Below are positions 2,852 to 60,835 of a stretch of DNA of 64,000 nt, piece by piece. The position numbers were made by a program, and so were the translations under genes. The notes beneath the pieces are model-generated. The model did not search any database and had not been told where the DNA came from. It saw nothing but the letters and a program-made list of their open reading frames with translations. The DNA comes from an uncultured Gammaproteobacteria bacterium (GTDB taxonomy: Bacteria > Patescibacteriota > Patescibacteriia > CAZGFX01), in NCBI GenBank assembly GCA_964524845.1, contig CAZGFX010000002.1:85389-149388 (forward strand), written 5' to 3'. The stretch's first letter is position 1; every line of letters starts with the position of its first letter.

Positions 2852-4071
2852 GATGGTAATAATTTAAATATTTCATCAACCATAAATTTTTCTCTGCTTT
2901 CCCACGAGTGTTCTTCGGCCGCCGATATACCAAGTGTTTTTATACGATTTCTCTCATCATTTCCTATATTTACAAATTTATCAATAGCCAAAACAAAATC
3001 ATCCGAAGTTGATGCAATTGTTACAATATCCGGAAATAACTCTGCTCCTGACGTTGGTGTGGCCACAATAGGAAGCCCTGCAGCTAGATAATCATACATT
3101 TTCATTGGGTTATTTGATTTCACAAACTCATCATTTTTATGAGGGATAATACCTACGTCAAACTGTTGAACATACATTGGAAGCTGATCGTACGATTTAC
3201 GTCCCAAAAAAAATACATTTTGAAGTTTTTGAAGTGGTGATAAATCTATCTCATCCTTTGTTACGATTCCGAAAATTTCATTTTTCCAATTACGAGACGT
3301 TGGCCCAATAAGTACAAACGAATATTCTGGGCGAGCTTTCGCGCATGCATATACCAAATCAACATCAAAACGCTCTTGTATTGTTCCTGTGTATCCAATA
3401 ATTGGTTTTTTGATATTTCCAATATCACGAGTGATAAGTTTTTGCTCTTTTTGAAAATGACTACTATCTATTCCATTTGGCACCCAAAACGCTTTTTTGT
3501 GAGTTGAAAAAAGGTTTTTTTGTTCTTTTGAAACAGTAAAAATTATATCCGCATGAGTATCAATAAAAGCATATCGTTCCAAAAGAAGATCTTTGTATTT
3601 TGGATAACTTGGGTGTTCTGCCCAATTATCAACCGCGTCAAAGACATTAAGTTGTTGACCGAGTCTACCATCCATATAATCAACCAAAAAAGGGAAAAAT
3701 GACCATGTAACAATATTTCCAAAACCTAGTTCTGATACATGTTTTTTGATTCGTTCATATATCTTATCGCTCTGAGCAATTGTATAGATTGTTGAATAGA
3801 CAAAAACCTTATCATGAAGCGCCGTCAATGATTCGTGAAGGTTTTTTGAAACAATCGTACCGCTTTTGATTGGTGTAATGAAATTTTCTATAAAATTACG
3901 GACCGATCTTTTCTTCGTAACAGGAATATAATCAATATAAAATATTTTCCCTATTCTAGGATCTGATATAAGTTTTTTAAAAATATTATAATTACGATTG
4001 TTGATTCCGCGAAGAACCCACTCATTATAACACGACATTCCGAACATTATGATGTCAATTTTTTTCTCCAT
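2848..4071 (-). CDS. glycosyltransferase, GT1/GT4-like (GT-B fold)
   Basis: C-terminal KMYDYLAAGLPIVATPTSG sugar-nucleotide binding type motif; 4-bp overlap with neighbours. Confidence 0.65.
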   Translation of the reverse strand: MEKKIDIIMFGMSCYNEWVLRGINNRNYNIFKKLISDPRIGKIFYIDYIPVTKKRSVRNFIENFITPIKSGTIVSKNLHESLTALHDKVFVYSTIYTIAQSDKIYERIKKHVSELGFGNIVTWSFFPFLVDYMDGRLGQQLNVFDAVDNWAEHPSYPKYKDLLLERYAFIDTHADIIFTVSKEQKNLFSTHKKAFWVPNGIDSSHFQKEQKLITRDIGNIKKPIIGYTGTIQERFDVDLVYACAKARPEYSFVLIGPTSRNWKNEIFGIVTKDEIDLSPLQKLQNVFFLGRKSYDQLPMYVQQFDVGIIPHKNDEFVKSNNPMKMYDYLAAGLPIVATPTSGAELFPDIVTIASTSDDFVLAIDKFVNIGNDERNRIKTLGISAAEEHSWESREKFMVDEIFKLLPS

Positions 4072-43650: not shown

Positions 43651-44322
43651 TTATTTTATAAATTTACCCAAAAGAAGTTCCTTTATTATTCGAAGACCTC
43701 CTAACAATCCTTGTCCATACTCTGCATAAAGAATATCAACGGGACGCTCAACAAAGCGAAGTTTATGAATTGATATTTCTTCAATAATTTCAGAAGCATG
43801 CGCCATTCTATCTTGAGTAATACGAATTGTCCTAGCAGCATGAGAAGATAATGCTCGAAAACCATTGTGTGCATCAGTAAGCCACAAACCCGTAAAGAAA
43901 AAATTTATTAACTTTGAAACAGGGAGCACGATCGCTCTTTTGGAAAAAGGAATATTCTTTTTGTCAGCTCCTTTTAAAAATCTAGATCCAAGAACAATAT
44001 CTGATTCTTTTGAAATGATTGGTTGTATCATTCTTTCTATATCCTTTACTTGGTGTTGCCCATCGCTATCAAAATGAATTATAATGTCAGCACCAATAGA
44101 CAGTGCATACTCCGTCCCAGTTGCTAATGCTGCCCCCTGTCCAAGATTGATACAATGTTCTATATATATACATGGTAACGAGCAAAGTATTTCCCGAGTA
44201 TTATCTTTCGATCCATCATTCACAGTAATAACTTCATCAACATGGGAACATAATTTTATAATAACATCGCTTACTGTTTCTGCGACGTTAAAACAAGGAA
44301 CAACTGCGACTATCTTCGGCAT
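43651..44322 (-). CDS. polyprenol-phosphate glycosyltransferase (GT2, DPM1/GtrB/ArnC-like)
   Basis: KIVAVVPCFNVAETV...TVNDGSKDNT...HFDSDGQH motifs. Confidence 0.8.
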   Translation of the reverse strand: MPKIVAVVPCFNVAETVSDVIIKLCSHVDEVITVNDGSKDNTREILCSLPCIYIEHCINLGQGAALATGTEYALSIGADIIIHFDSDGQHQVKDIERMIQPIISKESDIVLGSRFLKGADKKNIPFSKRAIVLPVSKLINFFFTGLWLTDAHNGFRALSSHAARTIRITQDRMAHASEIIEEISIHKLRFVERPVDILYAEYGQGLLGGLRIIKELLLGKFIK

Positions 44323-44333
44323 ACAAATAATAA

Positions 44334-45383
44334 TTATTTAATATCATTCATTGACAAACTGTCTACCATTTCGGACATCGTCACTGTATTGAGTGTTGTG
44401 CGCATATATTCGATCGTTCTGGTAATTCCATCCTGAAGTGTGACGAGAGGAAGCCAACCAAGTTGATTTTTTACCATGTTTGTATCAGGAAGAACAGAAT
44501 ATGTACTGAACGGAAGTGTTTCTCCTTGTCTTAATTCTGAAGCAGATCCTGCCAATCCAATAATCAACTGAGCGGTTTCAGTAACTGACACACCTATAGA
44601 CTGTCCTATGTTTATAGGAGACGATATTTCAGATACTGATAATTTTATTAACGCATCAACCATATCATCAATATAACAATATGATTGTTTTGCTTTTGGA
44701 TCACCATAAATAACAATATCCTTGTTTGAAAGCGCCGTTAATATAAGTTCTGGGATCAATCTCCCTGATTGAGCCGACATACGAGGTCCGTACGTATTAA
44801 AAATACGAGCAATTTTAATATCTAGATTATATACGTTACGATAATTTATAGCCATTGTCTCAGCAAACCTCTTCCCTTCATAATAAGCGCTTCTAGGTCC
44901 AGTAAAATCTACAATGCCAACATTTTTTTCGTTATAATATAAGTTATCACTAGATGGTTCTCCATATACAGATGATGTAGAACCATGAACGAATACGGAT
45001 CCATAAGTACGCGTCATCTCGAGAAGATTTTTTATAACCAACGAATTTGCATCTAATGTATTAATAACATACTTGGTAAAGTTTTTTACCGATATCGGAC
45101 ATGCAAAATTAAATATTGTTTGTATTCCCTGAAATCGTACTTTAAATTTATCAAGTTCGGGAACAGTATTTAAATCAATAGGAACCGAGCAGTCGTGATT
45201 CAAAAATACGAATTTCGGATGCTGTAAAAGATGTTGTATATTATCAATTTGGCTAGTTACAAAATTATCTATACAAATTATATGGTGTCCTTCAGCAAGT
45301 AATCGTTCACACACATGGGAACCTATAAATCCGGCTCCTCCTGCAACTACTATATTTTTCTCTTTATATGTTTGTGAGGTCAT
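44334..45383 (-). CDS. NAD-dependent epimerase/dehydratase, UDP-glucuronate decarboxylase-like (UXS/ArnA-type SDR)
   Basis: Rossmann [13 protein letters not shown]; catalytic region [13 protein letters not shown] resembles the UXS YDEGKR motif. Confidence 0.7.
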
Positions 45384-45467
45384 TGTTGTATATAAAAACT
45401 ATTACGATACCTACATTGTATCAATCAGACGCCGTTTTAACAAGGAGCTAAAATACTAAAAAATGGC

Positions 45468-46217
45468 TTAATAACAGGGTTTTTTCTTTATGCGGAACAG
45501 TCGTCTATGTACAAACCGAATATGAAGAAGATCATATAATACACGAGCATAGTCGAAAAGCAGCACTGTTGAACTCGTGTCGTTGACCCATCTAACAGGA
45601 ACTTCTTTAATTTTCAAGTCGTGTTTTTTCGCAATATATAAAAGTTCAAAATCAAATGAGAACCTCCTTGTTACTTGTTCATCCAAAAAATGTTTGAACA
45701 TTTTATTAAAAAGTTTAAAACCACATTGAGTGTCTCGTATAGATAATCCGAGTATCTTTCGAATCAAAAAATTACCAACCTTTCCAAGTGTTTCTTTGTA
45801 CCACACCTGATGTACTTCTATAATTGAATCAGACAAACCCCTTGAACCTATAATTACATCATAATCCGCGATATATTGGATGAGTTTTTCTAGTTCACAA
45901 ATATCTGTCGAGAAATCTGCGTCTATCATAAGCATCCATTCATAACGCGCATCGCGGAAGCCTGTATTTACAGCAAAACCCTTCCCTTCGTTCGGCGAAT
46001 ATGAAATTACACGAACCGGATCACCAAATCCTTCCGCGATGCGCGCGGTCGCATCCGTAGACCCATCATTCACAACAATAACCTCATATATATATCCGCG
46101 AGCATTACAATATGAACAAATACGAGTAATCGCTGAAGCAATTGATTTCTCTTCGTTGTATACAGGAACGATAACTGAAAGCGAGAACCGATTTTGTGTT
46201 AATGGTGTCATATACAA
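45468..46217 (-). CDS. polyprenol-phosphate glycosyltransferase (GT2, DPM1-like)
   Basis: LSVIVPVYNEEKSI...VVNDGSTDAT...MIDADFSTD. Confidence 0.8.
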   Translation of the reverse strand: MYMTPLTQNRFSLSVIVPVYNEEKSIASAITRICSYCNARGYIYEVIVVNDGSTDATARIAEGFGDPVRVISYSPNEGKGFAVNTGFRDARYEWMLMIDADFSTDICELEKLIQYIADYDVIIGSRGLSDSIIEVHQVWYKETLGKVGNFLIRKILGLSIRDTQCGFKLFNKMFKHFLDEQVTRRFSFDFELLYIAKKHDLKIKEVPVRWVNDTSSTVLLFDYARVLYDLLHIRFVHRRLFRIKKKPCY

Positions 46218-46292
46218 AGGTTTCCTAATACAAAATAATTATTATAATATAAGTATAGCAACAAATATAATTCTTTCATACAAAAACCATAT

Positions 46293-46754
46293 TTATTCAT
46301 CATGCGCTGACAAAGATGTCAGCTTATGCCGAAAAGTCCAAAACTTGTTACCAAAAAAATTGACTAATACCGTACAAGCAACCGCGCACAGCTTCGCTAT
46401 AATAACATGATATTCCAATGTTCCGTGTATAACATATAAAACAAGTTCAGATACACCTAGTCCGAGAAGCGCGACAATAAAAAATTTAGGTATTTCATAA
46501 TAAGCTTTGCCGGAAGATCGAAATGTAAATTTTCTGTTCAATGTAAAACTCAATAATACAGAAAAAATAAAAGAAACTATGTTTGTAATCAGATAATAAT
46601 ATTGAAAAAAAGAAACCGAAAACACAAGAAGCCAAAAAACTCCGATATCAAATAACGTTACAATGCCACCAATAAAAGAAAACATTATAAAATCTCCGAA
46701 TACCGAATCACGAACAATTCGATACGGCTTCCACAATCTTAATCTCTCCACCAT
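46293..46754 (-). CDS. GtrA family membrane protein
   Basis: 153 aa, 4 TM, FIGGIVTLFDIGVFWLL...NRKFTFRS pattern typical of GtrA. Confidence 0.65.
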   Translation of the reverse strand: MVERLRLWKPYRIVRDSVFGDFIMFSFIGGIVTLFDIGVFWLLVFSVSFFQYYYLITNIVSFIFSVLLSFTLNRKFTFRSSGKAYYEIPKFFIVALLGLGVSELVLYVIHGTLEYHVIIAKLCAVACTVLVNFFGNKFWTFRHKLTSLSAHDE

Positions 46755-48760
46755 ACACCATCTCTCAAGTGAATTAGATCAAAATCCCAAACATTTTTTA
46801 TCGGAACCTTATCATACCTATCAAAAAAATTTGTTGATATGACTCCGTCTCGGTTTGAAGGAAGAGTGAATACTACATCTTGTTTATCATCAAGAACACC
46901 TCTTAAATAATCAACTTTTTTACTATCATTTATCACGTCGTCTTTTAAATACTCATAAGCCGATGAATAATTATGTAGCCTATTCCAAGAATATGAGTAT
47001 AATTTATCATCTGTTAAATATAATCGTTTTCCATATCTATTATTTCTTCCGCTTTCATATTGAACCAATCCACTTCCATCCGCGTTCGAAACCGCCATAT
47101 CTTTTTTCCAGCCCTCTCTCGCATCACTTAAGATAACTGCTACCTCTGGATTTCCATCAGCATTTAAATCTCTTACATCAACATCATAACCGGCTATTAA
47201 TTTAGGAGATAGAGCGAACCACTGCGCATAAACTTTACCAAACATATCAAATACTCTTACATGAGGACCTCCTCCTCTATATGGCACTGTAACAATTAAA
47301 TCCTTCTCCCACTTACCACCTAATTGTCTTCCGAGTGGACCGTTTCTCCTTATCGTATCAACACGAACACCTCCGATAAAAAGATCTCCATACGCCTGAA
47401 ACCTTGTTCGAAATATGCCATCGTATTCAAACACATCAACAATTGATTTCCTTCCATTAATATATGAAACGGCTATTTCATCAACTCCGTCTGCATCGAA
47501 ATCTCCGGTCGTCATCTGCACATCATCTAGTGCCCCTCGATATATTAAAAATGATTGTATGATATTTCCTTCTGTCGTTACTATGCGTAAATAATACTTT
47601 CCGTTTTCTTGCACAATAACAGCAAGGACCGTGTGCGGAACAATTGTAATTGCTTTGATTATTGAATCAACGATATTGAGGGCTCTCACCGTCGTTCCTT
47701 CTGATCCTAGTGGTGTCGCATTATTAATCAAAAGATCTCTGATTTCAGAGTTTGTATAATATGGATACTCCGACATTATATACGCGGCGGCGGCGGAAAC
47801 AAACCCAGTAGCAAGAGACGTTCCCCACCATCCTGTTCCTACAGTATCTCGAAGCGTCGAACGTTCATATTCGTACGTAAGCGTTGAAATAATTTGTTCA
47901 CCGATTGCATAAATATCAACGCACGTATCTCCAACATTTGAAAAAACTGACACGGATTTTGTTTTTGCTATAGAACCAACCCCAATAACTATATTATCAG
48001 AAAAAACTGAACACACCGGATATAATGGCTTGTCGTTTAAATTTCTTCTTACAGCACCATCTTTGTATTCTCCGTTTCCAGCCGCCGCTACTATGAGTAC
48101 ACCGTGATCCCATGCATATTGAATGGCTTTTTTGAGCTCAAGACTTTCCTTTCCTGATATAAAACTCATGTTTATTACTCTCGCTCCATGATCTACTGCG
48201 TAATATATTCCTTTGATAACTGCATTAATATCTCCTATACCGTTCGCGGCGACAGCGCGAATAGGCATTATTTTTATATTTCCTTTTCCAACTCCTACCG
48301 TCCCGTTTCCATTGTGTTCGGCCGCGATAATTCCAGCAATAAAAGTTCCGTGATGCATGGCTTCGTATGATGCACCAGTTGATGTAACAGGAGATGGATT
48401 GCTATCGTTATCAGCAAAATCCCATCCATTATAATCATCTGTATATCCATTATAATCATCATCTTTCCCGTTTCCTGGTATTTCACGATAATTATGCCAG
48501 ATATTTTTCATGAGATCAGGATGATCAAGGTCAACCCCGGAATCAATAACAGCAACAACAACTTGATTTACACCATTATAATCAGTCCAAACCTTCTCCA
48601 TTTCCATCGTACGTAAATAATCCATGTTCACATACATCGAATCGCCTGGTATATATGTTTTTATTATTTGTACATCTTGCGCCTCAGCAAACACACCAAA
48701 AAACATTCCTATACAAATAGGAATTATAAGAAGTTTTCGTGCTATCTCATGCCATTTCAC
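46739..48760 (-). CDS. secreted subtilisin-like serine protease (peptidase S8) with C-terminal FG-GAP-like repeats
   Basis: Signal peptide; catalytic triad regions VAVIDSGVDLDHPDL, HGTFIAGIIAA, GTSLATGFVSAAAAYI; C-terminal DFDADGVDEIAV / RDLNADGNPEVAV repeats. GTG start. Confidence 0.85.
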   Translation of the reverse strand: MKWHEIARKLLIIPICIGMFFGVFAEAQDVQIIKTYIPGDSMYVNMDYLRTMEMEKVWTDYNGVNQVVVAVIDSGVDLDHPDLMKNIWHNYREIPGNGKDDDYNGYTDDYNGWDFADNDSNPSPVTSTGASYEAMHHGTFIAGIIAAEHNGNGTVGVGKGNIKIMPIRAVAANGIGDINAVIKGIYYAVDHGARVINMSFISGKESLELKKAIQYAWDHGVLIVAAAGNGEYKDGAVRRNLNDKPLYPVCSVFSDNIVIGVGSIAKTKSVSVFSNVGDTCVDIYAIGEQIISTLTYEYERSTLRDTVGTGWWGTSLATGFVSAAAAYIMSEYPYYTNSEIRDLLINNATPLGSEGTTVRALNIVDSIIKAITIVPHTVLAVIVQENGKYYLRIVTTEGNIIQSFLIYRGALDDVQMTTGDFDADGVDEIAVSYINGRKSIVDVFEYDGIFRTRFQAYGDLFIGGVRVDTIRRNGPLGRQLGGKWEKDLIVTVPYRGGGPHVRVFDMFGKVYAQWFALSPKLIAGYDVDVRDLNADGNPEVAVILSDAREGWKKDMAVSNADGSGLVQYESGRNNRYGKRLYLTDDKLYSYSWNRLHNYSSAYEYLKDDVINDSKKVDYLRGVLDDKQDVVFTLPSNRDGVISTNFFDRYDKVPIKNVWDFDLIHLRDGVWWRD

Positions 48761-48822
48761 AATATTTAAACATTTAAATCTTCGTGCCTAGTATAAAATA
48801 TTTCCCTAATTTAAGCAATGCA

Positions 48823-49046
48823 CATTGTAACCTCGACACCATATTGTCACCCCGAACGAAGTGAGGGGTTGTCACCTCGACCCGCCTCGTCACCTCGAAC
48901 TAAGTGAGGGGCCTCACCAACACTGTCACCTAGACACCACATTGTCATCCTTAACTGACATTGTCATCCTTAACCCACATTGTCATCCTTAACTGACACT
49001 GTCATCCTTAACTGACACTGTCATCCTGAACTTGTTTCAGGATCTT
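48823..49046. repeat. degenerate tandem array of about 10 short units, core TTGTCAYCYYGAAC, ending in a palindromic hairpin
   Basis: Read directly: units such as ATTGTCACCCCGAACGAAGTGAGGGG, TTGTCACCTCGAC, and 4 near-identical ACTGTCATCCTTAACTGAC copies (48939-49016), then ATCCTGAA-CTTGT-TTCAGGAT. Confidence 0.75.
49017..49045. repeat. left 29-bp inverted repeat flanking the GIY-YIG gene
   Basis: ACTGTCATCCTGAACTTGTTTCAGGATCT; exact reverse complement of 49402-49430. Confidence 0.85.
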
Positions 49047-49059
49047 CCATGATACATTG

Positions 49060-49335
49060 TCATAATAACAAATCTTTGAGTTCCGGATTATACTCTTTTA
49101 TCAAATTCCATTTCCACTTTCTGTGCCAACGTTTTAATTGCTTTTCTCTTTCTAGTGCATCATATATGGACTCGTATTCTTCTGTGAACACTAATTTCGT
49201 CAAATGATATCTACGCGTAAACACGCCTCCTTTCTTGTTTCTATGAAACATCACACGACGAATAATATCGTTAGTGACACCAATATATAAGGTTGTGTTG
49301 GTATAATTTGTTAAGATATAAACGTAGTAAGACAT
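49060..49335 (-). CDS. GIY-YIG nuclease family protein (small, UPF0213-like)
   Basis: 91 aa; YVYILTN...LYIGVTNDIIRRVMFH...GG.FTRRY...E.EKQLKRW pattern of the GIY-YIG fold. Confidence 0.8.
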   Translation of the reverse strand: MSYYVYILTNYTNTTLYIGVTNDIIRRVMFHRNKKGGVFTRRYHLTKLVFTEEYESIYDALEREKQLKRWHRKWKWNLIKEYNPELKDLLL

Positions 49336-49401
49336 AATATATCTATATCACTTGTCTTTTAGAAACTAAAGCGCCGTCTGTGAATTACTTAGTTACACGG
49401 T

Positions 49402-49430
49402 AGATCCTGAAACAAGTTCAGGATGACAGT
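49402..49430. repeat. right 29-bp inverted repeat flanking the GIY-YIG gene
   Basis: AGATCCTGAAACAAGTTCAGGATGACAGT; exact reverse complement of 49017-49045. Confidence 0.85.
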
Positions 49431-49460
49431 AATAATAAGTTGTCGGCCTCCCCCAAAACA

Positions 49461-49494
49461 AAAACTCCCCCGCCCGAAGGCAAGGGGAGTTTTT
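49461..49494 (-). terminator. rho-independent terminator of the large surface-protein gene
   Basis: GC-rich hairpin ACTCCCC-(GCC-CGAA-GGC)-GGGGAGT with U-run on the minus transcript, 30 nt after the stop. Confidence 0.6.
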
Positions 49495-49525
49495 AGTAAC
49501 GATACTAAACGAGGTACAAATTCGG

Positions 49526-52500
49526 TTAGTACGTAGTAACAGCACCGAGAACAGGCAACGACGGTGAGAATGTAGAATTAACAGTTGTTGAGTTGTCGAA
49601 CGCTGAGATATACGAGTAAGGAACAGGGCCTGCGGTTGCAGGGAATGGGCCAGCTGAACCCTCGAGACGACTAGAAAGCGTCACATTAGATTGAACCGGA
49701 GCTGGTGCATTAGCACCATCCATCTTGATGTTTGAGGTGTTAGCATAGAGTCTGAACTCTTTTGAATTACCCTGAGTAATCGTAATTGCTGATGTAAGCG
49801 CGAACTGTACCGTCTGAGAAGAGACAGTAGCAGTAAGTGTAGCTGGGATCGCCACATCACTTGAATCCTTAAGAACGTAACCGGTAACTTTACAATTTGT
49901 GATTGTAACACCGCTACACGCTGGTACGATATCACCATCGAACGAAGAGAAAGGACCGTTTGAACCGGAGATAGTAAATGTGATTTGAGTCATAGTGAGA
50001 TCTCTTCCACCATCAGCCTTAATGCTGTATTTGCCAATCATTTGATTAGCCTGTGGAGCTAGTGTCGTATTTGACATTGTGCTTGTCATAACAGCAACAA
50101 CATCATCGGCTCTGTGTACTCTTATCGCATGCTTAGCATTTGTATAGAGAGCACCAGCTGTTCCAGCTGCGTTTTCTGTCATGTTAATAACATAAACACC
50201 TGCCGTACCATAAGCCGTATCTCCAATTGTTGGAGCTGTTGTAAGAGTTGATAATGCGGCACCGATTGCAACGCCTGCTGCATTTGTAACAACAGCGAAG
50301 CCTGTGGATGCGGTTCCTACAGTATCAGCTACGAACACTAGGTCACCTGGTTCATAAACTACTTCAGCATTTGTGCTTGTATTATCAGCAAGACCCAGTC
50401 TTGAGATTCTATAAGCACTTGACCACGTAGTTGTACCAGCAGCGCTGTTGAAAATAACAGTACCACCGTTAAAATCAGCTACGTTTGTTGTAATGCCATA
50501 CGCTGGATATGTAACACCAGCAGTAGCACCTGTAGAATAGATGAACTGGCCACTAACAGAAGATTGTGTTCCGTTTGGCAAGAATGTATCAGCTGCAGTA
50601 AGAGTACCTGCAACTTCCTGCGACAAGTTTGATACGAGACCGACTGAGTCGATGTCGAATATAACAGGCGCGATCAGTTGAGTAGCAGCTGCATTTGTAG
50701 CAAGAGCTTGAATAGCAGCGGCATCAGCCTTTACAGTCAATACTTTTGAGCTTCCCTTCTCAACTGAAACAGTTAAACCAGAGAAGCTTGCTTCGTATCG
50801 AGCTGAAGTGCTGTTGTACTGCAATGGCTGTTCGCCAATCTTCGTAGCGCCATCATAGAGATATACTCTTGTGATGTTCTTATCGAAGTTGAGGCCTCCC
50901 ATGACAATCTTACTGATCTTCGCACCTTCAACTAGGTTGGAAGTGAATTTGAAGTCAGCGAGGTTTGCCATAGTCTGGCTTGCAACGATGATAGACGAAG
51001 ACACTGCGGATGTCGGATCATACGAGAAGCTTAGTAAGCCACCCGTCGTTGACATCGTCATGATCTGAAGATCGGTTGCAGCTGCAGTCAAAGACTTGTT
51101 TGATGGTACTGCGACACCAGTAGCTGCTGCCGTAAGCCTCAATGAAGCATTATCAGAAACACCAGATGAAGCAATAGAACCAACAACCCGAATTTGAACA
51201 GATGCATTTGCAGCTAGGTTCAATTCTCCAGAAACAGAGAATGTTGGTGAGCTAGCCGGAGTCGACTGTGTATCACCAATCTTGACCCATGCTGAACCTG
51301 ACCACTTGTAAAGCATAACGTTGGAAATTTTGTTTCCAGCAAATGCATTTGTATTCGCGCCAGTTGGGAATGTATTTCCAGCTGTTCGTGTACCAATGGT
51401 AAAGTTCGAAACATTTGCACCCTCAGCAGCAGCCGTTGAAAGAACGAACTGTGCTAGAGGAGCGGCTGTAGAACCGGTAACGATAGTAGTGCTTGGCAAT
51501 GAGTTATCAATAGCAATATTCATTGAAGAATCTTCTACTGACAATGTGTTTGCTGGAACACCAGATGTATGAAGACTAACACCCGCTCCTACAGAAGTAC
51601 TACCATTTGTTTGGTTAAGATTGCTTGAAAGAAGTTTAACTTCCCATCCATTCAAAACACCCTTAATCTGACTATTTATAGGGAAGTGAGTAGAATCGGA
51701 AGATTCGCTCTTCAATTGAGCAACTAATTTAACCTGTTTTGTCTGGCCGGCAGGAATCGTGAGATAAGGAGACAATGTGTACTTAACAACATAATATGTA
51801 TTTGCGGCAATAGATCCTTTCGGAACATTTACGTTTGATACAGAAGATGCTATTGAGTTATTGTTTCCATCCCATAGACCAGCTGTGTCAAGATTTCTGT
51901 TTGTACCAGCTGTTCCATCGGTTGCGTAACCAACATAGATTACACGAACCTCTGTGTCTTCACCAGCAGCAACAAAATCATATACACCTATCGTTTGGTT
52001 TGAACCTGCAGCCACCTTATTTGAAGGAGACGATGGAGATAAACCTAATGACTGTGTACCCTGATTAATGTTGTGTAATGAGATATTATCTGATGAGGAA
52101 GTAATTTTATCACCAATTGGGAAAGTTGTGTCATTGCTTGTATCAACTTTAGGCAAGAAACTTACGCCGGTCTCAAGACCACGAAGCGTTATGTCTTCTG
52201 CTTGTTCTACAACAAGTTGAAGTGTTCTGCTTGTCCCACCAATAACATCAGCTTTTACAGTCAATGTTACGGTATTGCCTTCTGCCATTGACAATCCGGT
52301 CGTCGTAATGACAGCCTGATTGTTTACATTAAGCGACGAAACAGAACCAATAAGAGCACCGGTTGATTCGTTATATACTTTTATATTCTGTATATCAGAT
52401 GCAGTTGCAGTACCTCTGTTTGTAAGAACGATTCGATCTATTGCAATCTGCTCGTTAGTTACTTCAAAGATTTTGAACTGCGCAATAACTTCTCCTGTGT

Positions 52501-53716
52501 CGCCAACATCAAGATTCTGAGAATAATTTCCTACAGAACCGATGCGGGCACTTCCAAGTAAGGTGCTACCATCAATAATAGACATTTCATTGCCTCTTAT
52601 TGGAAATGTTCCACGAACAGTACCACCAGAAATAGTGATGCCTGTAGCAGACTCAATTCCGAGCGCAATTGTACCATTATTATTACCTGCCTCTACAATG
52701 TCAGCAGCTAGATAAACAGTAGTTGTCTGACCGGCAGTCAATGCGATAGGATCGCTTGTGAAGTTAATAGTTGCATAACCATTATACAAGCTTACCGTAC
52801 CACCATGACGGTTGTTGTTTGAATCAAGAATTTTGACACCTTCAAGTATATTATCACTTGATACGCCATATCTCTTGATTGTAACTCCAGTCAAGTTTAC
52901 CGCAGTGCTTGCGCCGTTGGTAACGTTGATTGCAGTCATTTTAAAGTTACCAGCTCCATCAGGTACAGTCATAGAAGCTGGAGTGCTTGAAGCCAATGAG
53001 AATGTGATATCTCCTGAAATAACTGGAGAACCACCACCTGTTGGATAATCCAACAAAGTAGTCTCAAGGCCTGTGATAGAAGTACCGATATTGAATGCAG
53101 ATACTGCGCCAGCAGTAACTTCATGTACAAACTCGTTTCTGAACATGTTTGCAGTGAATGCAGACTCAGAAGCGAATGGGCGGCGTTTGCTACCCTCAAT
53201 ATAGTACTTAGTACCATCTACTTTTATCAATTGACCGGTTGGGAACTGGTTCACCGTAGAAATTGCGGTGCCGGTATGATAAGTAGCGGCGAATGTATTC
53301 GGATTAATATCTTTGATCCACTGATTCCAGTTTGATCCGAATAATGAAGCTGCGATTGTTTCAGAGCCGACGTGGCGAATTGAAGCGCCATTCTCGACTG
53401 CATAGGTCTCGGAAAAATCCGGAACCTTAACCATCCAAGTACCAGAGCGAACGCCCATAGTACCAGCTAGATGGAATGCAGCGAAGTCAGCATCAGAAAC
53501 AGTCTGCACAGCATCGAAATTTTCATATCGAGAAAAGAACTCGACTTGTGAAGGGAAAGTGTACAAACCATTGTTTCCGCCTACGAAATATACGGTCGTT
53601 GAAGATGCTTTCTTAACGAGAGCTCCTTCATTGTAAGTAGCTGCTGCTACATCTGTGTAGATGAGAAGCGATGCCACTACCGTGAACAAGGCAAAAACTT
53701 TTCTGAATTTACTCAT
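49526..53716 (-). CDS. large secreted Thr/Ser/Ala/Gly-rich surface protein (putative S-layer or adhesin-like)
   Basis: 1396 aa; signal peptide MSKFRKVFALFTVVASLLIYTDVAAA; N-terminal pair of about 85-aa repeats, then long low-complexity region; no LPXTG. Gene is much more GC-rich than surroundings. Confidence 0.7.
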   Translation of the reverse strand: MSKFRKVFALFTVVASLLIYTDVAAATYNEGALVKKASSTTVYFVGGNNGLYTFPSQVEFFSRYENFDAVQTVSDADFAAFHLAGTMGVRSGTWMVKVPDFSETYAVENGASIRHVGSETIAASLFGSNWNQWIKDINPNTFAATYHTGTAISTVNQFPTGQLIKVDGTKYYIEGSKRRPFASESAFTANMFRNEFVHEVTAGAVSAFNIGTSITGLETTLLDYPTGGGSPVISGDITFSLASSTPASMTVPDGAGNFKMTAINVTNGASTAVNLTGVTIKRYGVSSDNILEGVKILDSNNNRHGGTVSLYNGYATINFTSDPIALTAGQTTTVYLAADIVEAGNNNGTIALGIESATGITISGGTVRGTFPIRGNEMSIIDGSTLLGSARIGSVGNYSQNLDVGDTGEVIAQFKIFEVTNEQIAIDRIVLTNRGTATASDIQNIKVYNESTGALIGSVSSLNVNNQAVITTTGLSMAEGNTVTLTVKADVIGGTSRTLQLVVEQAEDITLRGLETGVSFLPKVDTSNDTTFPIGDKITSSSDNISLHNINQGTQSLGLSPSSPSNKVAAGSNQTIGVYDFVAAGEDTEVRVIYVGYATDGTAGTNRNLDTAGLWDGNNNSIASSVSNVNVPKGSIAANTYYVVKYTLSPYLTIPAGQTKQVKLVAQLKSESSDSTHFPINSQIKGVLNGWEVKLLSSNLNQTNGSTSVGAGVSLHTSGVPANTLSVEDSSMNIAIDNSLPSTTIVTGSTAAPLAQFVLSTAAAEGANVSNFTIGTRTAGNTFPTGANTNAFAGNKISNVMLYKWSGSAWVKIGDTQSTPASSPTFSVSGELNLAANASVQIRVVGSIASSGVSDNASLRLTAAATGVAVPSNKSLTAAATDLQIMTMSTTGGLLSFSYDPTSAVSSSIIVASQTMANLADFKFTSNLVEGAKISKIVMGGLNFDKNITRVYLYDGATKIGEQPLQYNSTSARYEASFSGLTVSVEKGSSKVLTVKADAAAIQALATNAAATQLIAPVIFDIDSVGLVSNLSQEVAGTLTAADTFLPNGTQSSVSGQFIYSTGATAGVTYPAYGITTNVADFNGGTVIFNSAAGTTTWSSAYRISRLGLADNTSTNAEVVYEPGDLVFVADTVGTASTGFAVVTNAAGVAIGAALSTLTTAPTIGDTAYGTAGVYVINMTENAAGTAGALYTNAKHAIRVHRADDVVAVMTSTMSNTTLAPQANQMIGKYSIKADGGRDLTMTQITFTISGSNGPFSSFDGDIVPACSGVTITNCKVTGYVLKDSSDVAIPATLTATVSSQTVQFALTSAITITQGNSKEFRLYANTSNIKMDGANAPAPVQSNVTLSSRLEGSAGPFPATAGPVPYSYISAFDNSTTVNSTFSPSLPVLGAVTTY

Positions 53717-60291: not shown

Positions 60292-60382
60292 TGGAGGAGG
60301 AAGAGGGATTCGAACCCTCGACACGTTTATCACGTGTGACGGTTTTCAAGACCGTTGCCTTAAACCACTCAGCCATTCCTCC
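60292..60382 (-). tRNA. tRNA-Ser (anticodon UGA), long variable arm, CCA encoded
   Basis: Minus-strand GGAGGAATGGCTGAGTGGTTTAAGGCAACGGTCTTGAAAACCGTC...GAGGGTTCGAATCCCTCTTCCTCCTCCA; anticodon loop CTTGAAA; close to canonical bacterial tRNA-Ser(UGA). Confidence 0.85.
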
Positions 60383-60760: not shown

Positions 60761-60835
60761 GGTCCCATCGTCTAAGGGCTAGGACACTACCCTCTCACGG
60801 TAGTAATCGGGGTTCGAATCCCCGTGGGATCACCA
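60761..60835 (+). tRNA. tRNA-Glu (anticodon CUC), CCA encoded
   Basis: GGTCCCATCGTCTAAGGGCTAGGACACTACCCTCTCACGGTAGTAATCGGGGTTCGAATCCCCGTGGGATCACCA; clover-leaf checks out by hand; very similar to canonical bacterial tRNA-Glu except the anticodon. Confidence 0.85.

Follow-up and report, generated by a model that had tools for sequence, protein, structure and literature searches.

A probable ssn locus in a Patescibacteria genome: a GIY-YIG nuclease gene between perfect inverted hairpin repeats

This study concerns a stretch of 64,000 nucleotides (64 kb, hereafter the window) on contig CAZGFX010000002.1 of an uncultured bacterium (GenBank assembly GCA_964524845.1) that GTDB places in the Patescibacteriota. 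The main finding is that a 414-bp unit within this window, at 49017-49430, is very probably an ssn locus, that is, a gene for an Ssn-family GIY-YIG nuclease lying between its cognate hairpin repeats. Both the membership of the protein in this family and the repeat architecture of the locus can be read directly from the DNA. The first-pass annotation of the window had presented the unit as a candidate miniature mobile element and had stated that no described family was built on a GIY-YIG protein of about 90 amino acids (aa) with such repeats. This statement did not survive, since the Ssn nucleases with their NTS/SRM repeats have been published (PMC11893778) and the repeats had already been described as CGTC-tagged REPs (PMC3733652). 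The Ssn/hairpin-repeat system is thus already known, and the locus is not a new kind of mobile element. What is new is a host in the Patescibacteria (candidate phyla radiation, CPR) for the Ssn/SRM system, an AT-rich repeat class that is widespread (at least 120 genomic stretches, many phyla) and escapes the published search motif, and arrays of half-repeats attached on the predicted cut side.

The Ssn/NTS-SRM system was described by Chenal et al. (2025, Nat Commun 16:2388; PMC11893778). The 94-aa SsnA of Neisseria meningitidis has a GIY-YIG domain and no other (CDD cd10448); it binds its repeat, NTS (CGTCATTCCCGCGMAVGCGGGAATCYRG), as single-stranded DNA (ssDNA) only and cuts it a few nucleotides upstream; double-stranded DNA (dsDNA), RNA and the reverse strand are not substrates, and the RNA version of the repeat is not bound (PMC11893778). 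The frame of the NTS consists of C-GTC, ATTCCCGC, GMAV, GCGGGAAT, C and YRG, in which the three bases GTC 5' of the palindrome are the most important for cutting and the C just 3' of it for binding. In a genome-wide screen by the same authors ssnA alone stood out by its association with these repeats, which the purified proteins specifically bound and cut. SRMs were found near 71% of ssnA homologs and on both sides in 42%, while in Neisseria the NTS cluster near surface-protein genes, and SsnA of N. meningitidis reduces transformation by NTS-containing DNA. The authors also pointed out that the NTS-ssnA-NTS layout is the same as that of an insertion sequence (IS) and raised a domestication like that of RAYT/REP systems, in which a repetitive extragenic palindrome (REP) is served by a REP-associated tyrosine transposase (RAYT) (PMC11893778).

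The nuclease gene and its flanking repeats

The ssn gene occupies 49060..49335 on the minus strand, as given by the list of open reading frames (ORFs) and by Pfam, and encodes a single-domain protein of 91 aa. Its GIY-YIG match (PF01541) covers residues 3-76 with E=3.3e-15; no other Pfam domain, including an extra DNA-binding domain, was found in the protein, and an NCBIfam search gave no match. Compared with the ssnA ortholog of N. gonorrhoeae (the translation of positions 1447-1728 of locus L215), the window protein shows 47% identity over 85 of 94 aa (90%) in an ungapped alignment of 76 bits (pairwise E=5e-25). A tblastn search with the window protein against a 7.3-Gb plasmid collection returned the gonococcal match at E=4e-10, and hhalign of the family profile against the gonococcal ortholog gave a probability of 99.8%. 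Chenal et al. count as homologs those proteins with blastp E<1e-10 and coverage of at least 75% (PMC11893778), and with the gonococcal ortholog as reference the window protein lies within these limits. The gonococcal match is a 94-codon ORF amid canonical NTS repeats, and it is taken as the ssnA ortholog because its Y6, Y17 and E64 fit the numbering of the mutants Y6A, Y17A and E64A in that paper (PMC11893778). All 40 sequences of an alignment share Y17 and E64, and at least 90% of them share Y6; the window protein holds all three residues at those positions. With high confidence we regard it as a putative member of cd10448, the Ssn family.

The gonococcal sequences deserve a remark of their own. 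Both tblastn targets, NZ_CP119142.1 (which contains L215) and NZ_CP119140.1, are complete N. gonorrhoeae chromosomes of 2.17 Mb that were deposited or typed as plasmids. The reading frame of the L215 ortholog is open from 1432, with ATT at the expected start and the first ATG, GTG or TTG at codon 24, so that its start may be non-canonical or mutated.

Hundreds of homologs were found at 50-75% identity to the window protein, about 90-123 aa in length and with the GIY-YIG domain alone. The nearest is P0002 (75% identity), and the names attached to the homologs include Patescibacteria, Balneolaceae, Deltaproteobacteria and Delongbacteria, the last three at 56-62% identity. Many of them sit on contigs shorter than 2 kb. 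At L221 and L223-L225, and on many of these short contigs, the sequence ends within a few bases of the ssn gene, which is consistent with assemblies breaking at the flanking repeats. The homolog proteins themselves often bear N- or C-terminal tails, such as CHPELVSGS(H), DPETSSG/DAETSSA and MLKQVQHD, which are translated hairpin (P0013, P0035, P0041, P0064, P0065, P0098, P0101 and P0113). Several homologs end at the TGA within the ATGAC tag of the repeat, yielding tails like ...DPETSSG, and in the window a 50-aa ORF at 49393-49545 (minus strand) is an artefact of hairpin translation. Recognition of these repeats is therefore of value for annotation, as it explains spurious ORFs, peptide tails and assembly breaks beside ssn.

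Two other identities were tried for the protein and rejected. As a phage homing endonuclease it gave PHROG matches that are weak, mostly confined to the N-terminal ~35 residues (these with E>=3.6e-4) and all with E>=7e-5, and a search of 2.9 million viral contigs yielded only 7 homologs. As part of a defence system it gave in PADLOC only a weak partial match to UzuA, at residues 3-35. The UPF0213 relatives in the PDB, 1zg2 and 1ywl, are distant, with profile E of about 1e-5.

The repeats that bracket the gene are perfect over 29 bp. The sequence ACTGTCATCCTGAACTTGTTTCAGGATCT is found at 49017-49045 on the plus strand and its exact reverse complement at 49402-49430; when extended, the flanking inverted repeat reaches 35 nt at 94%. 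Because ssn is on the minus strand, the copy at 49402..49430 (minus strand; detected by folding and inverted-repeat search) is the upstream one, reading ACTGTCATCCTGAACTTGTTTCAGGATCT on the gene strand; its GTC tag faces away from the gene, and its core of GTC, hairpin and C lies at 49403-49427. The downstream copy (49017..49045, plus strand; core 49020-49044) is its exact inverted copy, again with the tag away from the gene. Both read TGTC-(ATCCTGAA CTTGT TTCAGGAT)-C, followed by T. Folded as ssDNA, each repeat has a stem of 8 bp and a loop of 5 nt (-6.1 kcal/mol; z = -2.5 and -3.4), and the spacers between gene and repeats are 66 bp upstream and 14 bp downstream. The ORF coordinates, the two gaps and the perfect repeats with 8-bp-stem hairpins had all been reported in the first-pass annotation; the coordinates prove exact, and sequence and ssDNA fold agree on the hairpins. 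Only two copies of the 29-bp repeat are present in the window with up to 3 mismatches allowed, and none of 100 shuffled window controls gave a 29-bp repeat match. The locus is a clean minimal example of its kind, with two perfect repeats and one gene.

Along the gene strand, a gene for a 1396-aa protein is followed by a terminator, the forward repeat, 66 nt, ssn, 14 nt and the inverted repeat; beyond the latter come a 19-bp array of repeat head halves, two GTCACC-type units and an S8 subtilase gene. The unit had been placed between a surface-protein gene and a subtilase gene, which holds, its neighbours being the 1396-aa protein, which has no Pfam match, and the S8 subtilase. The intrinsic-terminator stem-loop of the upstream 1396-aa gene (49467..49486, minus strand), with a T-run tail to about 49457 and a longer inverted repeat at 49460-49494, marks the outer boundary of the 414-bp unit and lies outside the unit itself. 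On the other side, the tandem array (48939..49032, plus strand) repeats the head half ACAYTGTCATCCTTAAC in 4.9 copies with a period of 19 bp, the 3' stem arm being missing; it extends away from the downstream repeat on the tag side, with the head of the complete repeat as its last unit. In the same orientation as the array, two 43-bp units (48825..48911, plus strand) contain weaker GTCACC-tagged hairpins, GTCACCCCGAACGAAGTGAGGGG at 48846-48868 and GTCACCTCGAACTAAGTGAGGGG at 48889-48911. These units are probably degenerate relatives of the repeat, because shuffled sequence folds just as well as their hairpins. The head motif occurs once more as ACATTGTCAT (49054..49063, plus strand), which overlaps the ssn stop codon. 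The minus strand of the gene, the 19-bp array, the GTCACC-type units and the terminator had not been mentioned in the first pass. Rfam, searched over the whole window at gathering thresholds and at the locus with E<=1, gave nothing relevant at the locus; its only matches in the window are two tRNA genes at 60295-60382 (minus strand) and 60761-60832 (plus strand).

Repeats and ssn genes in other genomes

To describe the layout at other loci, 80 metagenomic loci were retrieved by protein similarity, and the 57 with at least 250 nt of flank on each side were scored with a generalised hairpin detector (GTC followed by a stem of 7 bp or more, a loop of 3-9 nt and then C, within 250 nt of the gene). 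A forward tagged hairpin stands upstream of ssn at 34/57 loci and an inverted one downstream at 41/57. Tagged hairpins on both sides with the tags outward are found at 31/57 loci (54%), and at least one within 250 nt at 46/57 (81%), while the background density of such hairpins away from ssn is 0.115 per kb. The upstream and downstream copies of one locus belong to the same stem class, with cross-class pairs at none of 43 loci, and the classes differ among loci, the AT-rich CTGAA type standing beside GC-rich types such as ATTCCCGC-GAAG-GCGGGAAT. L002 and L003 (65-68% identity) have the same hairpin type beside the gene, and their stems compensate, ATCCTGAA/TTCAGGAT versus ATGCTGAA/TTCAGCAT. 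The third stem pair distinguishes the upstream from the downstream copy at most CTGAA-class loci, typically as ATCC before the gene and ATGC after it. No such difference is seen in the window or at L211, a locus in the Patescibacteria metagenome-assembled genome (MAG) GCA_028707495.1, where the two copies match perfectly over 28-29 nt; this suggests a recent gene conversion or duplication. Identity to the window protein does not correlate with the class of the flanking repeat (mean 55.5% for CTGAA and 54.4% for GC-rich), so that a co-evolution of enzyme and repeat is not visible at such a crude level.

The CTGAA class is also dispersed far beyond ssn genes. We scanned the GTDB species-representative genomes with GTCATNCTGAAYTTRTTTCAGNATC, and all figures for this repeat class refer to the matches listed. 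The class occurs in at least 120 genomic stretches from many phyla, against an estimated chance expectation of about 0.07. Among its hosts, which have complete repeat-rich chromosomes of Pedobacter and Sphingomonas among them, are Gracilibacteria, Saccharibacteria and other Patescibacteria, Bacteroidota, Sphingomonadaceae, Nitrospirota, Treponema, Gastranaerophilales, Endomicrobium, Firmicutes, a Rickettsia endosymbiont and one Nanoarchaeota MAG. The last of these (JAHIPG010000372.1, L029 2672-2740) holds a CTGAA-type forward-inverted doublet on a contig binned as a DPANN archaeon, which could reflect mis-binning or a transfer between episymbionts. About 93% of the copies (142/152) have no GIY-YIG gene in their own 8-kb locus. 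The first-pass annotation had asked for further copies; in other genomes the repeat class and homologs of the gene are plentiful, while the window itself holds two repeats and one gene. Among the 151 copies with enough flank, the free stem pair is Watson-Crick in 144 and a second variable pair (Y/R, near the loop) in 147; a pyrimidine precedes GTC in 138 (C 81, T 57) and follows the closing C in 146. For 75 of the 151 there is an inverted partner no more than 150 nt away on the tail side, and these partnered copies are gene-less doublets whose geometry equals that of the gene-containing unit. The wide distribution of the CTGAA class and the structural constraint on it are plain from these figures.

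Such numbers of hairpins without a gene raise the question whether the repeats are ordinary REPs moved by a RAYT (a Y1 tyrosine transposase) or another enzyme, with the GIY-YIG gene merely among them. The repeats do fit the super-family of CGTC-tagged REPs, most copies are far from any ssn, and the doublets resemble REPINs. However, no dedicated transposase was found for CGTC REPs (PMC3733652), and the published screen with its binding and cutting assays points to ssnA (PMC11893778). In the loci scored above, the 81% with a tagged hairpin within 250 nt of ssn also stand far above the background per kb, and the gene flanked is GIY-YIG, not Y1_Tnp, with GTC as the tag, not GTAG. We therefore consider this explanation very improbable.

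The pairing in the stems fits a structure in RNA as well as in DNA, and the hairpins might accordingly act as RNA, by terminating transcription, stabilising mRNA or forming a regulatory structure in a housekeeping gene. Both hairpins probably lie within the ssn transcript, and Di Nocera et al. proposed RNA roles for REPs (PMC3733652). The remaining evidence argues otherwise: there is no Rfam match at the locus even at E<=1, no T-run follows the hairpins, and the unpaired GTC tag and the C after the stem are conserved, as expected for recognition by a protein. SsnA does not bind repeat RNA (PMC11893778), and the motif is found mostly away from the gene and in both orientations. An RNA function in place of a nuclease target has hardly any probability left.

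Several points weigh against the reading of the unit as an ssn locus with its cognate repeats. The reference for the family assignment is a gonococcal ortholog reconstructed from DNA, not N. meningitidis CAX49033.1, and the gonococcal ORF has no canonical start codon in that strain. The window repeat does not fit the published SRM search motif, HGTCWYN(0-2)YYVSBRHN(0-5)WNVSBRGN(0-2)RNCYNB, and the whole window is without a match to it. The motif does match the NTS control sequences and the repeats of L211 and L215; it misses the window repeat because it demands G/C at stem positions that are A/T here. At the homolog loci it matches 13/57, versus 46/57 by the generalised GTC-hairpin-C, and the published association figures may therefore underestimate AT-rich repeat classes. 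Moreover, cutting by an Ssn protein paired with CTGAA-type repeats is a prediction by analogy with the characterised enzymes, and only two intact repeats are present within 64 kb, so that this genome may not have a Neisseria-like repeat expansion. In the window the tagged repeats are confined to the cluster beside ssn, though the class is dispersed in many other genomes.

Gene position, mobility and a proposed mechanism

The neighbourhood of the window locus is shared with the distant relative L211 at 27-44% aa identity, and comprises a DUF5667 gene, a large surface protein, the subtilase, GtrA, an epimerase, GT2 and DUF2304. L211 has an ssn homolog with 53% identity to the window protein, and on each side of this gene stands the same sequence, TGTCATTCCCGCGAAGGCGGGAATCCAG, which is the Neisseria NTS bar its first base and fits the published SRM motif. 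At L211 the gene lies between subtilase and GtrA, while in the window it lies between the surface-protein and subtilase genes; the window subtilase and GtrA genes overlap and thus leave no room for ssn in that slot. A third relative has no ssn beside the subtilase. The different slot in L211 makes relocation over long time scales likely. The first-pass annotation had reasoned that gene and repeats conserved at one syntenic position in divergent genomes would speak for a housekeeping gene with structured flanks; with another intergenic slot in L211, such conservation is not what we see. At 12976-13042 of L211 there is also a gene-less CTGAA-type doublet, 3.4 kb from ssn, so that two repeat classes occur within 4 kb. 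In the window (43651-53716), at L211 and at L226-L233, ssn stands repeatedly in or beside cell-surface or glycosylation clusters (surface protein, subtilase, GtrA, glycosyltransferases, epimerases, DegT), which echoes the NTS near surface-protein genes of Neisseria.

The change of slot bears directly on mobility. If the unit were an autonomous mobile element, nicking at the repeat ends followed by repair or homing would copy the cassette into other sites, for example gene-less doublets. The terminal-inverted-repeat layout with outward tags would suit such an element, as would the frequency of gene-less forward-inverted doublets of the same geometry, the other slot in L211 and the third relative without ssn beside the subtilase. 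Homologs named from other phyla are 56-62% identical to the window protein, whereas the nearest homologs of the neighbouring window subtilase reach no more than 38% identity; many ssn homologs lie on very short contigs ending at repeats; GIY-YIG genes were listed in a published analysis among those transferred out of Patescibacteria; and the head-half arrays on the cut side could be repair scars. Against these stand the single gene copy and two repeats in 64 kb, and the absence of a direct repeat that could be a target-site duplication in the window flanks (...TTAACTGAC / unit / AATAATAAG...). Two homolog proteins, on 17-18 contigs each, always keep one genomic context per protein, which indicates the same organism in many samples, and the great majority of repeat copies have no ssn in their 8-kb locus. 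The predicted cuts, being on opposite strands, would not release an ssDNA copy as in IS200/IS605, and homologs are scarce in viral contigs. Furthermore, GIY-YIG nucleases hydrolyse DNA without a covalent intermediate for strand transfer, which counts against a mobile element, and we know of no strand-transfer activity of Ssn or other GIY-YIG enzymes. Taken together, autonomous mobility appears clearly unlikely. What stands of the transposon-like or homing cassette first suggested is a coherent IS-like unit that recurs across bacteria; its single window copy, the lack of a target-site duplication, the one-context homologs and the gene-less state of most repeats give no support to the rest. We favour the view that the unit is a long-domesticated, rarely relocating element comparable to RAYT/REP, and not an active transposon. 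Its change of position within a conserved neighbourhood bears on whether Ssn cassettes are domesticated mobile elements.

For an ssn locus of this kind, a mechanism can be proposed by analogy with the characterised enzymes. The window protein would bind the repeat only when it is single-stranded and folded into a hairpin, recognising the sequence of the stem together with the GTC tag on its 5' side and the C immediately 3', and would nick the same strand a few nucleotides 5' of the TGTC tag. The predicted cuts would fall around 49431-49436 (minus strand) and around 49010-49016 (plus strand), and since both tags point outward they would lie just outside the 414-bp unit on opposite strands. Its biological role would likely be the processing of repeat-bearing ssDNA from competence uptake, replication forks or repair tracts. 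Competence genes are reported to be prevalent in Patescibacteria (PMC12455944). Such processing may modulate recombination around the repeat cluster, which lies here beside cell-surface genes.

The half-repeats show a bias that is of interest in this respect. In a survey of 452 complete repeats, orphan head halves lie on the tag side in 63 cases versus 20 on the tail side, and arrays of at least two head halves occur 7 times on the tag side and never on the tail side; tail halves are unbiased (31 versus 37). The window array (48939-49032) lies on that side of the downstream repeat where the cut is predicted, and tag-side head-half arrays are present at other ssn loci, L135 (about 100-280 and about 2930-3100), L143 and L174. 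We speculate that tag-side arrays are compatible with slippage during repair of Ssn nicks. A bolder proposal is that the cassette is now, or was recently, self-propagating by a mechanism of a new kind, with Ssn nicking the tag side, repair copying the cassette or its hairpins into doublets, and the half-repeat arrays as scars; with the CTGAA class missed by the published motif, the reach of Ssn would then be much underestimated. To this combination we assign a low probability. From a practical point of view, each new pair of Ssn and repeat is a candidate site-specific ssDNA cutter of new specificity.

Comparison with known systems

Among enzymes with the same catalytic domain, I-TevI and the Seg proteins of T4-like phages resemble the window protein in their GIY-YIG domain and in being encoded by small intergenic genes. 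Homing GIY-YIG enzymes are larger than 200 aa, have a separate DNA-binding domain, cut dsDNA and are found mainly in phages or introns. The UPF0213/YhbQ-like proteins (1zg2, 1ywl) share with it a stand-alone GIY-YIG domain of about 100 aa and differ in belonging to another CDD family; we know of no flanking repeats for them.

Among repeats, the nearest counterparts outside the Ssn literature are the CGTC-tagged REPs of Di Nocera, De Gregorio and Rocco (2013, BMC Genomics 14:522; PMC3733652), which include dRS3 of Neisseria and RPE-4/RPE-6 of Rickettsia. Their tag is often TGTC, their stem of 8-9 bp starts with AT, their loop has 4-5 nt, they occur mostly as inverted dimers, and they "apparently lack a dedicated transposase" (PMC3733652). 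The window repeats are alike in the TGTC tag, the 8-bp stem with AT at positions 1-2, the 5-nt loop and a short unpaired tail. However, the stem sequence is another one, and the CGTC-tagged REPs were described mainly in Alphaproteobacteria, whereas the CTGAA class spans many phyla; nor did that work find an enzyme that goes with them. With RAYT/REP (REPIN) systems the window locus shares a single-copy nuclease gene between two inverted tagged hairpins, the dispersal of the hairpin class as doublets and a layout that suggests a domesticated element. The difference lies in the enzyme and the tag, an HUH/Y1 transposase with GTAG there and a GIY-YIG hydrolase with GTC in the window.

The closest match is the Ssn/SRM system itself. 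The window locus differs from the published examples in its AT-rich stem and loop (ATCCTGAA/CTTGT versus ATTCCCGC/GMAV), in its Patescibacteria (CPR) host, a group absent from the main text of that paper, and in flanking copies that are perfect over 29 bp with a half-repeat tandem array attached. It is alike in its protein, which consists of a GIY-YIG domain alone (about 91-94 aa), has Y6, Y17 and E64 and shows 47% identity to the gonococcal ortholog, and in repeats that flank the gene 5' and 3' within 500 bp, both with Y-GTC 5' of an 8-bp stem that begins with AT, a loop of 4-5 nt and a C after the stem. In both cases repeats of the class also occur dispersed and as inverted doublets, for the CTGAA class in other genomes, and they cluster by cell-surface genes.

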